Below, in pieces: positions 2,428 to 3,245 of a stretch of 7,540 nucleotides of DNA. The stretch lies in IMG/VR virus record IMGVR_UViG_2660238573_000002; one strand, given 5' to 3'. Each line of letters begins with the position of its first letter. The first letter of the stretch is position 1. The translations under genes were made by a program, and so were the position numbers. The notes below the pieces were generated by a model that saw nothing but the letters and a program-made list of their open reading frames with translations, did not search any database and was not told the origin of the DNA. This DNA comes from a virus. Taxonomy: Duplodnaviria > Heunggongvirae > Uroviricota > Caudoviricetes.

Positions 2428-3245
2428 GCTATCCCCCTGTCTGCAAACTTCCCTTCCCGAACTCCCGTTAACGAATCTTCTCTCAGCAGGTAATCAAAAT
2501 CAGCCGTCCAGCCCGTGTCGTTGTCTCCGAAGTAAAACGGCTTGGCCTGATGCACAAACGCCCTGACATACGCTCTGAAACCGTCCACGTTTGGCGTTTT
2601 CAGTTGTGGGATGATTTTCTTCAGGCGGCGTTTGCGTTTCTCGTTGACCGCAACAGCGTGTGGCAGTCTGTCACCGACTTCGGTGTTGTAGGCGTTCAGG
2701 AAGGATTCGTAGTCGATTCGTTCTGCCTTGCGACGTTCAGGTTTAACCTGCCCATCGCCGCCCCCGTTAGGGGGTAAGGGGGTATTTGTATTTATTGTCT
2801 TTTGTATATTGTCTTTTGTGTTTAGCTGACTTGGCTTATACCCATTAGCCGACTTGGCTAATGTTTTATTAGCTGTTTTAGCTAATGTTAAGCTGTCCTG
2901 GCTAATCCACTGCGAAACCACCTTGTTCACTCCGATTTTCACGCCATCAGCAATGAGGAATTTTCGCTCAATAAGCTGGCGCTTGGCAGCGCAAACATGA
3001 GTGTGATGAATACCTGTCATGGCTGCTATCTGCGTGTTTGTGAGTCGATCCATCGGCTTATTGAATCCGTATGTCTTGCGCATGATAGCGAGCATCACCT
3101 TCAACTGCCGGACGGTTAAATCAGCCATCAGCAGACTGTCGGTAATCTCGTTAGCAACGCGCATGAAACCATCTTCGGTATCTGCCACGCGATGCTCCAC
3201 GACCTCCAGTTGAGGCCTGTAATCAGCTAACTTAACGACGCCCAT
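2424..3245 (-). CDS. Lambda O-like / P22 gene 18-like replication initiation protein (273 aa)
   Basis: N-terminal region ([10 protein letters not shown]...[32 protein letters not shown]) resembles the lambda O N-terminal DNA-binding domain as I recall it. SD AGGAG lies 6 nt upstream of the ATG. Origin-type iterons are embedded in the coding sequence. Confidence 0.85.
2785..2906. repeat. Candidate origin of replication: four dyad-symmetric iterons of about 17 bp plus an adjacent AT-rich region, inside the O-like gene
   Basis: Iterons TAGCTGACTTGGCTTAT (2823-2839), TAGCCGACTTGGCTAAT (2846-2862), TAGCTGTTTTAGCTAAT (2870-2886) and AAGCTGTCCTGGCTAAT (2890-2906), each with internal dyad symmetry (e.g. 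TAGCC-N5-GGCTA). AT-rich tract TATTTGTATTTATTGTCTTTTGTATATTGTCTTTTGTG lies at 2785-2822 with a G/C-rich block (2761-2784) next to it. The order iterons then AT-rich follows the direction of O transcription, as in lambda ori. Confidence 0.65.

Follow-up and report, generated by a model that had tools for sequence, protein, structure and literature searches.

A probable lambda-type replication origin with TTAGC iterons in the initiator gene of an HK97/Stx 'Eru2'-type lambdoid phage or prophage

The window analysed here, 7,540 bp of a Caudoviricetes genome (IMG/VR record IMGVR_UViG_2660238573_000002), comes, judged from its sequence, from a lambdoid phage or prophage, whose immunity and replication region it represents. 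Within it, positions 2761-2906 very probably (we put the probability at about 0.9) form a theta-replication origin of the type found in HK97, ST104 and the Shiga toxin (Stx) phages with an 'Eru2' replication unit. The element lies in the linker-coding part of the initiator gene and is positionally homologous to the origin of lambda (ori lambda). The arrangement is that of a textbook lambdoid origin with another initiator-binding sequence, not a new kind of element. The features of the origin and the neighbouring genes are listed in Table 1.

The initial annotation of this DNA, made from the letters alone, had placed the origin inside the coding sequence of an O-like protein, and profile searches confirm that the gene is that of an O-like initiator. 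The initiator matches Pfam Phage_rep_O (PF04492) at residues 19-113 (E = 5.8e-33; 113.7 bits, where the cut-off is 28.7; all 95 profile positions aligned) and PHROG 345, 'replication initiation O-like' (E = 3e-105). Its stop codon is overlapped by the downstream gene, whose product matches DnaB_C (E = 2e-77) and the DnaB N-terminal domain (E = 4.5e-13) of Pfam. The counterparts of this helicase are labelled 'similar to DnaB' in the HK97 record and 'DnaB analogue' in the Nil2 record, and it is presumed to be the partner recruited by the C-terminal domain of the initiator.

Four iterons of about 17 bp, 20-24 bp apart, had been described, and these are found as 17-mers of the form TTAGC-N7-GCTAA (Ia to Id in Table 1), with no other site in the window at one mismatch or fewer. 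A repeat search gives a corresponding four-copy direct-repeat family at 2824-2839, 2847-2862, 2871-2886 and 2891-2906 (spacing 23, 24 and 20 bp). Among 2000 dinucleotide-preserving shuffles, at least four matches anywhere occurred in one and at least three within 100 bp in none; this test is post hoc, as the pattern was derived from the same data. The iterons occupy nucleotides 341-424 of the 822-nucleotide gene, right after the Phage_rep_O domain, with starts at 341, 361, 385 and 408, i.e., a spacing in gene orientation of 20, 24 and 23 bp or about two helical turns. The dyad symmetry that had been ascribed to each iteron holds for the two inner ones, which are strong palindromes with 7-bp arms (DNA folding energies of -5.1 and -4.2 kcal/mol, z = -6.0 and -3.1), but not for the two outer ones, where one half-site is degenerate. 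Likewise, the repeated 14-residue peptide described as their translation is present at about residues 120-133 of the O-like protein, but only the two inner iterons encode it. A terminator-like call at 2843-2863 on the plus strand, antisense to the initiator gene, consists of iteron Ic and a T run. Its location within an intact, conserved open reading frame (ORF) led to its rejection as a terminator, and it is probably incidental to the palindrome.

The relationship to ori lambda becomes clear when origins are aligned on the motif ACACAAAAGA, the start of the AT-rich tract that follows the last iteron. From this anchor the window, P22, Klebsiella phage GZ7, E. coli phage Perceval, Erwinia phage 49 (Ehr49) and lambda can be aligned without a gap. 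Each has four half-centre-half (5-7-5) iterons starting 84, 64, 40 and 17 bp before the anchor, and the classes differ only in the 5-bp half-sites, which are TTAGC/GCTAA in the window, TTTAC/GTAAA in P22, TTACC/GGTAA in GZ7 and Perceval, and TCCCT/AGGGA in lambda. The annotated lambda iterons ITN1-4, at 39034, 39054, 39078 and 39101, have the same 20/24/23 spacing as the window, and the first iteron is found at about nucleotide 340 of the gene in the window and 348 nucleotides into gene O in lambda. The AT tracts are homologous (window ACACAAAAGACAATATACAAAAGA, lambda ACACAAAAGACACTATTACAAAAGA, with the common elements ACACAAAAGAC...ACAAAAGA), and in both an inverted repeat starts about 44 bp in from the beginning of the tract. 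The comparison with the P22 and lambda origins that the initial annotation had called for thus gives one register with three sets of half-sites, and the suggested parallel to ori lambda with a different iteron sequence is borne out by spacing, gene offset and AT tract.

This register is also kept over larger distances. From 80 loci with relatives of the initiator N-terminal domain (N-domain), we selected 21 representatives whose ori segments are less than 95% identical to one another; phage phiES15, which has an extra insertion between iterons, was excluded from this set. All 21 retain the 20/24/23 spacing, and in all of them the last iteron is equally far from the AT motif. Some loci contain additional iterons: six in L047 and L049, five plus the insertion in phiES15 (L005), and five in GZ7 (L007) and Perceval (L008). 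The extra copies sit upstream of the canonical four, giving a longer initiator linker, and the last three or four iterons are always spaced 24/23 and stand at the same distance from the AT tract. Six-iteron origins have been reported for the Stx phages 933W and P27, which these relatives parallel.

The four iterons bound by lambda O are in the middle of its own gene, beside an AT-rich tract that is part of the origin (PMC7466680). As in the window, ori lambda is located inside the initiator gene at the junction of two domains, the first a Phage_rep_O domain, and consists of four 5-7-5 dyad iterons, the last of which abuts the homologous tract of about 40 bp. Apart from the half-sites, the differences lie in the initiator, where the N-domains are about 37% identical and the recognition-helix motif is LPVKR in lambda O and IHHTH in the window, and in its partner, as lambda O has an unrelated C-terminal domain and is paired with the lambda P loader, while the window has a phage DnaB-type helicase. 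Further, the arms of the lambda palindrome are about 11 bp, compared to the short C5/G5 hairpin of the window. Of the features expected of an origin of the ori lambda type, location in the initiator gene, phased dyad iterons (two perfect, two half-degenerate), a homologous AT tract and purifying selection at the DNA level are found here.

Plasmid iteron origins such as those of pSC101, F, P1 and R6K (RepA-family) also have phased repeats about two turns apart, an AT-rich unwinding element and winged-helix initiators. The window resembles them in its phased, presumably initiator-binding repeats beside an AT-rich element and in a predicted winged-helix initiator. However, plasmid iterons are direct repeats without dyad symmetry, to which Rep binds as a monomer, and they are located outside the rep gene and usually adjacent to DnaA boxes. 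In the window, the repeats are dyad-symmetric and inside the initiator coding sequence, and it is not a plasmid RepA-type iteron origin. No DnaA boxes were found in the 7,540-bp window and, therefore, a DnaA-type origin was rejected.

The 38-bp AT-rich tract and the adjacent G/C-rich block of the initial annotation were both recovered. The tract contains two copies of ACAAAAGACAAT 14 bp apart (direct repeat D4), and its coding strand is purine-rich. It is the least stable 40-mer of the O gene, with a nearest-neighbour free energy of -42.8 kcal/mol (z = 3.0), which is in the top 0.5% of the window, and from its sequence it is presumed to be the DNA-unwinding element. In lambda, a palindrome flanks the AT tract, and the C5/G5 block is located at the equivalent place. 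Inverted repeats of 5-8 bp are found between 38 and 48 bp from the start of the AT tract in 18 of the 21 diverged representatives, and their sequence turns over by lineage (CCCCC/GGGGG, TCTGC/GCAGA, CCCAC/GTGGG, GTCATC/GATGAC and ACCTCCC/GGGAGGT). The position of the repeat is kept while its sequence changes, including on both arms (2761-2782 and its equivalents in L010-L089). Possible roles are a hairpin on the unwound strand or a cue for helicase loading. In the window, the inverted repeat is composed of rare codons, CCC for proline and GGG for glycine.

Conservation in the iterons follows the DNA. Over the 21 representatives, the half-sites have a mean information content of 1.86 bits, compared to 1.07 for the iteron centres and 1.12 for the stretches between iterons. 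Third codon positions reach 1.98 bits in the half-sites compared to 0.63 in the N-domain of the same genes (Mann-Whitney p = 5e-8). Leucine in the two in-frame iterons is encoded by TTA in 41 of 42 cases, compared to 11% in the rest of these genes, and the right-hand alanine by GCT in 42 of 42 (32% elsewhere). The third base of the left-hand alanine codon, just outside the half-site, varies freely between GCC, GCT and GCG. Conservation thus tracks the dyad symmetry of the DNA and not the codon positions. The four iterons are also translated in three reading frames, as ISQDSL, LAKTAN, LAKSAN and KPSQL. The three reading frames, together with near-invariant synonymous positions in the half-sites, clearly point to selection on the DNA rather than on the peptide. 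As read from these sequences, the repetition in the peptide is a side effect of that in the DNA.

Another close relative is the P22 origin in gene 18, where Casjens and colleagues described four repeats of about 20 bp unlike those of lambda. P22 shares with the window the gene pair of an initiator and a DnaB analogue (gp12, described as a DnaB-type helicase; 10.1101/2020.10.05.325894), the iteron register and a nearly identical C5/G5 block. With its DnaB-family helicase directly downstream and a gp18-homologous C-terminal part (64% amino acid identity), the window contains a P22-type replication module. Over 2784-2823, i.e., the AT tract, the identity to P22 gene 18 (L003) is 100%, while the remaining gene is 48-85% identical in 40-nucleotide blocks, with 50-57% in the iterons and most of the N-domain and 48-80% in the C-terminal part. 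BLAST identity to P22 is confined to 2753-2829. At the protein level, gp18 is 41% identical in the N-domain, 23% in the iteron-coded stretch and 64% in the remainder. Identity rises from about 55% to 100% at 2823, and mosaic junctions coincide exactly with the borders of the AT tract. The window shares neither the half-sites nor the recognition-helix motif (MAPTK in P22) of the P22 origin specificity. From these differences and those in the N-domain, it follows that the window is a mosaic sibling of P22 for which a different origin specificity is expected.

The TTAGC class of iterons and N-domains is elsewhere joined to a DnaB-type helicase, a lambda-P-type loader or a DnaC-type loader. Three kinds of partner for one class of N-domain are expected of a two-domain initiator, in which the N-domain goes with the iterons and the C-terminal domain with the partner. 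Judging from the position of the junctions, the unwinding element seems to double as a crossover point for swaps of initiator domains among lambdoid phages.

Other explanations for the repeats and the tract can be considered. The least credible is that the repeats are a flexible protein linker (LAKTAN/LAKSAN) between the initiator domains with no role of the DNA in cis. The stretch is of low complexity and located between two domains, and a single-sequence AlphaFold2 model of the full-length protein (mean predicted local distance difference test, pLDDT, 38.7) has no confident fold there. However, a linker accounts neither for unrelated peptides from three reading frames nor for synonymous half-site positions that are invariant across 21 lineages and variable just outside, including the rare TTA codon, and the conservation pattern is that of the dyad and not of the codons. 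It is also very improbable, if slightly less so, that the AT tract and its flanks are maintained mainly as a homologous-recombination hot spot for exchanging initiator domains and not for unwinding. The mosaic junctions and the abrupt rise in P22 identity at 2823 fit such a hot spot, as do the three kinds of C-terminal partner found with one iteron class. Yet exchange at this site is compatible with origin function anyway, it leaves the phased iterons, their dyad symmetry and the low duplex stability unexplained, and the homologous lambda tract is described as part of the origin (PMC7466680).

A third alternative, unlikely although the most plausible of these, is that the iterons are bound but serve mainly in regulation or incompatibility (through autoregulation or titration, or as a target of exclusion or defence), or are a relic, and that replication starts elsewhere. 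Phages with lambda replication genes (rep-lambda) are inhibited by ectopic lambda iterons (PMC3349717), and the defence systems OLD and Lamassu localise to lambda iterons; iterons therefore have roles beyond initiation. Against this, the iterons, AT tract and inverted repeat of the window are in single-base register with the experimentally defined ori lambda, the AT tract is both an island of complete P22 identity and the thermodynamically weakest point of the gene, and no other candidate origin turned up in the window, where DnaA boxes and further iteron matches at one mismatch or fewer are absent.

Some observations weigh against the assignment as an origin and the specificity attached to it. 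The outer iterons, with the degenerate half-sites GCTTA and TAAGC, fold no better than shuffles, and the inverted repeat beside the AT tract is short and no better than shuffles in any one sequence. None of the examined records, including HK97 and Nil2, has an origin feature at the ori locus, and no experiment on the HK97/Eru2-type origin lineage was found in the literature. The model of the N-domain is of moderate confidence, built from a shallow alignment and with weak matches in the PDB (E 0.007-0.03). Finally, the association between recognition helix and half-site discussed below could mostly reflect shared ancestry, with the Ehr49/L083 clade as the sole independent contrast.

We suggest that the origin would work as follows, in line with the lambda mechanism summarised in PMC7466680. 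Dimers of the O-like protein would bind the four TTAGC-N7-GCTAA iterons through the N-terminal winged helix, with the start of the recognition helix (H80-H81-T82-H83) reading the 5-bp half-sites. Four phased dimers, about two helical turns apart, would then wrap and bend the DNA into an O-some, and the bending stress could be relieved through melting of the adjacent unstable AT tract, probably aided when the gene is transcribed rightward. The phage DnaB-type helicase, encoded directly downstream, would be brought to the opened strands by the initiator's C-terminal domain, so that a lambda-P-type loader would not be required. The pairing of the initiator and helicase genes supports this last step. 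Binding, unwinding, helicase loading and origin firing are thus all inferred by homology with lambda O and P22 gp18.

The N-domain was modelled with AlphaFold2 from a 27-sequence alignment, with a mean pLDDT of 78.7 and 84-91 over residues 30-110. The homologue search behind it gave mostly truncated or frameshifted fragments, which were enough for a shallow alignment but are not a census of the family. The model contains helices at 45-59, 70-77 and 81-93 and a wing formed by strands 97-100 and 103-106, and its best fold matches in the PDB all belong to winged-helix regulators (MarR and CRP/FNR families). When the PDB was searched by sequence and profile, no relative was found, only eIF5A at E ~1.5, which is noise. 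From the model, residues 81-93 are the predicted recognition helix, with H80-H81-T82-H83 as the predicted specificity-linked motif.

The motif with which this helix starts predicts the half-site class in every one of 203 loci, which represent about 100 distinct origins. IHHTH, KHHTH and KHLTH are found with TTAGC, ILPHK and ILSHK with TTACC, MAPTK, MAATK, IDSTK and LPETR with TTTAC, and LPVKR with TCCCT. In the Ehr49/L083 clade, several N-domain motifs are P22-like, yet the proteins have KHxTH and the iterons are TTAGC. A distinct initiator specificity, as proposed in the initial annotation, is supported by this association and by the differences from P22 in half-sites and N-domain next to an identical AT tract. 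It is also in line with an 'HK97' replication specificity, common to ST104, that was already listed apart from those of P22 and lambda (Villafane et al. 2008, PMC2629481). As a tentative proposal from these sequences, with the odds somewhat against it, lambdoid specificity may reside only in half-site positions 2-5 and about four residues where the recognition helix begins. The pairs seen are HHTH/TTAGC, LPHK/TTACC, APTK/TTTAC and PVKR/TCCCT, presented on one rigid scaffold of 5-7-5 iterons at 84, 64, 40 and 17 bp before a conserved unwinding tract with an inverted repeat about 44 bp in.

The initiator gene is 98.5-99.3% identical at the nucleotide level to HK97 O (gp54), ST104 gene 18, Nil2 o and the genes of the Stx2 phages 1717 and 2851, and over a 191-bp ori segment the identity to HK97 and ST104 is 99.5-100%. 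Over the whole window, identity is about 98% to Stx2 phages of E. coli O157:H7, and 98% to the Stx2 phages 2851, 1717 and YYZ-2008. The protein lengths of the replication module are those of Eru2A (273 amino acids) and Eru2B (458 amino acids) in the Stx-phage 'Eru2' replication unit (PMC8044961). The element is thus essentially identical, with no biological difference, in HK97 O/P, ST104 18/12 and the Stx 'Eru2' unit. The two papers on Eru units term this one non-lambdoid and never use the word 'iteron', and the later one lists Eru2A as a protein of unknown function. An explicit listing or annotation of TTAGC iterons was not found in the literature covered, which does not include the primary HK97 and P22 papers.

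About 8% of complete E. coli genomes (398-444 of 5426) contain this exact origin. The 191-bp ori segment as such is present in 444 of them, nearly always in the chromosome, i.e., in a prophage, and usually in a single copy. Matches among plasmids are mostly phage-sized circles of about 35-48 kb, which are probably excised phage genomes. The others are far larger records or partial matches, and the plasmid matches were therefore rejected as independent evidence of autonomous replication.

Table 1. Features of the candidate origin, its initiator gene and the neighbouring genes in the window
Feature	Position	Strand	Description
C5-TTA-C5-TAAC-G5 block (gene orientation)	2761-2782		inverted repeat CCCCC/GGGGG, 2761-2765 paired with 2770-2774
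AT-rich tract	2784-2821		38 bp, 79% A+T; gene orientation ACACAAAAGACAATATACAAAAGACAATAAATACAAAT
Iteron Id	2822-2838		TAAGCCAAGTCAGCTAA; abuts AT tract; degenerate left half-site; KPSQL, third reading frame
Iteron Ic	2845-2861		TTAGCCAAGTCGGCTAA; palindrome with 7-bp arms including flanking bases; read as LAKSAN
Iteron Ib	2869-2885		TTAGCTAAAACAGCTAA; both half-sites perfect; read as LAKTAN
Iteron Ia	2889-2905		TTAGCCAGGACAGCTTA; first in gene orientation; degenerate right half-site; read as ISQDSL
N-terminal winged-helix domain coding region	2901-3245	minus	amino acids 1-115; AlphaFold2 model
O-like / P22 gp18-like initiator gene	2424-3245	minus	273 amino acids, 822 nucleotides; origin inside
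DnaB-like replicative helicase gene	1051-2427	minus	458 amino acids; P22 gp12 / HK97 gp55 type
ninB	52-504	minus	
53-amino-acid ORF (orf53)	3232-3393	minus	
cII	3426-3722	minus	
cro	3864-4079	minus	

The genes around the origin follow the order of a standard lambdoid early-right operon, with cro, cII, orf53, the initiator, the helicase and ninB all on the minus strand and the cI repressor gene divergent on the plus strand. A promoter scan of the window gave no convincing pR or pO site, and Rfam has no match anywhere in it. At 3386-3418 (minus), there is an exact 33-nucleotide match to the conserved pO / oop 5' consensus of Hayes et al. (PMC3349717), and a terminator-like hairpin is found at 3450-3477 (plus) inside the 3' end of cII, on the strand opposite the pO/oop match. 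Together, these suggest an oop-like antisense RNA as in lambda, for which Rfam gives no match. Further, a 173-amino-acid ORF at 5351-5872 (plus), between cI and an N-like antiterminator gene (6601-6873), has the position of lambda rexAB. It matches only PHROG 2602 (unknown function), with no match in Pfam or PADLOC, and may be a moron or exclusion gene expressed from the prophage. Near 5221-5250 and 6173-6200, it is apparently flanked by GC hairpins, each followed by a T run.

The TTAGC-type origin is a new, or at least unannotated, example of a well-known kind of origin, and as the biology is that of the textbook, its value is mostly for annotation. The same origin is found in many Stx2 phages of O157:H7 and in P22-like Salmonella phages, where it is unmarked in the examined records. 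If the simple code proposed above is causal, the widespread Stx 'Eru2' unit, labelled non-lambdoid and with an initiator listed as of unknown function, would be a plain lambda-type O/ori system with a targetable origin. Establishing the origin and its iteron class provides a concrete target for studying or blocking prophage replication, a driver of Shiga-toxin output. The natural series of origins, one scaffold with different half-sites, is useful for dissecting how O-type initiators read DNA. If the simple code were causal, origin specificity would be predictable from sequence and could be re-programmed through a few residues and bases.

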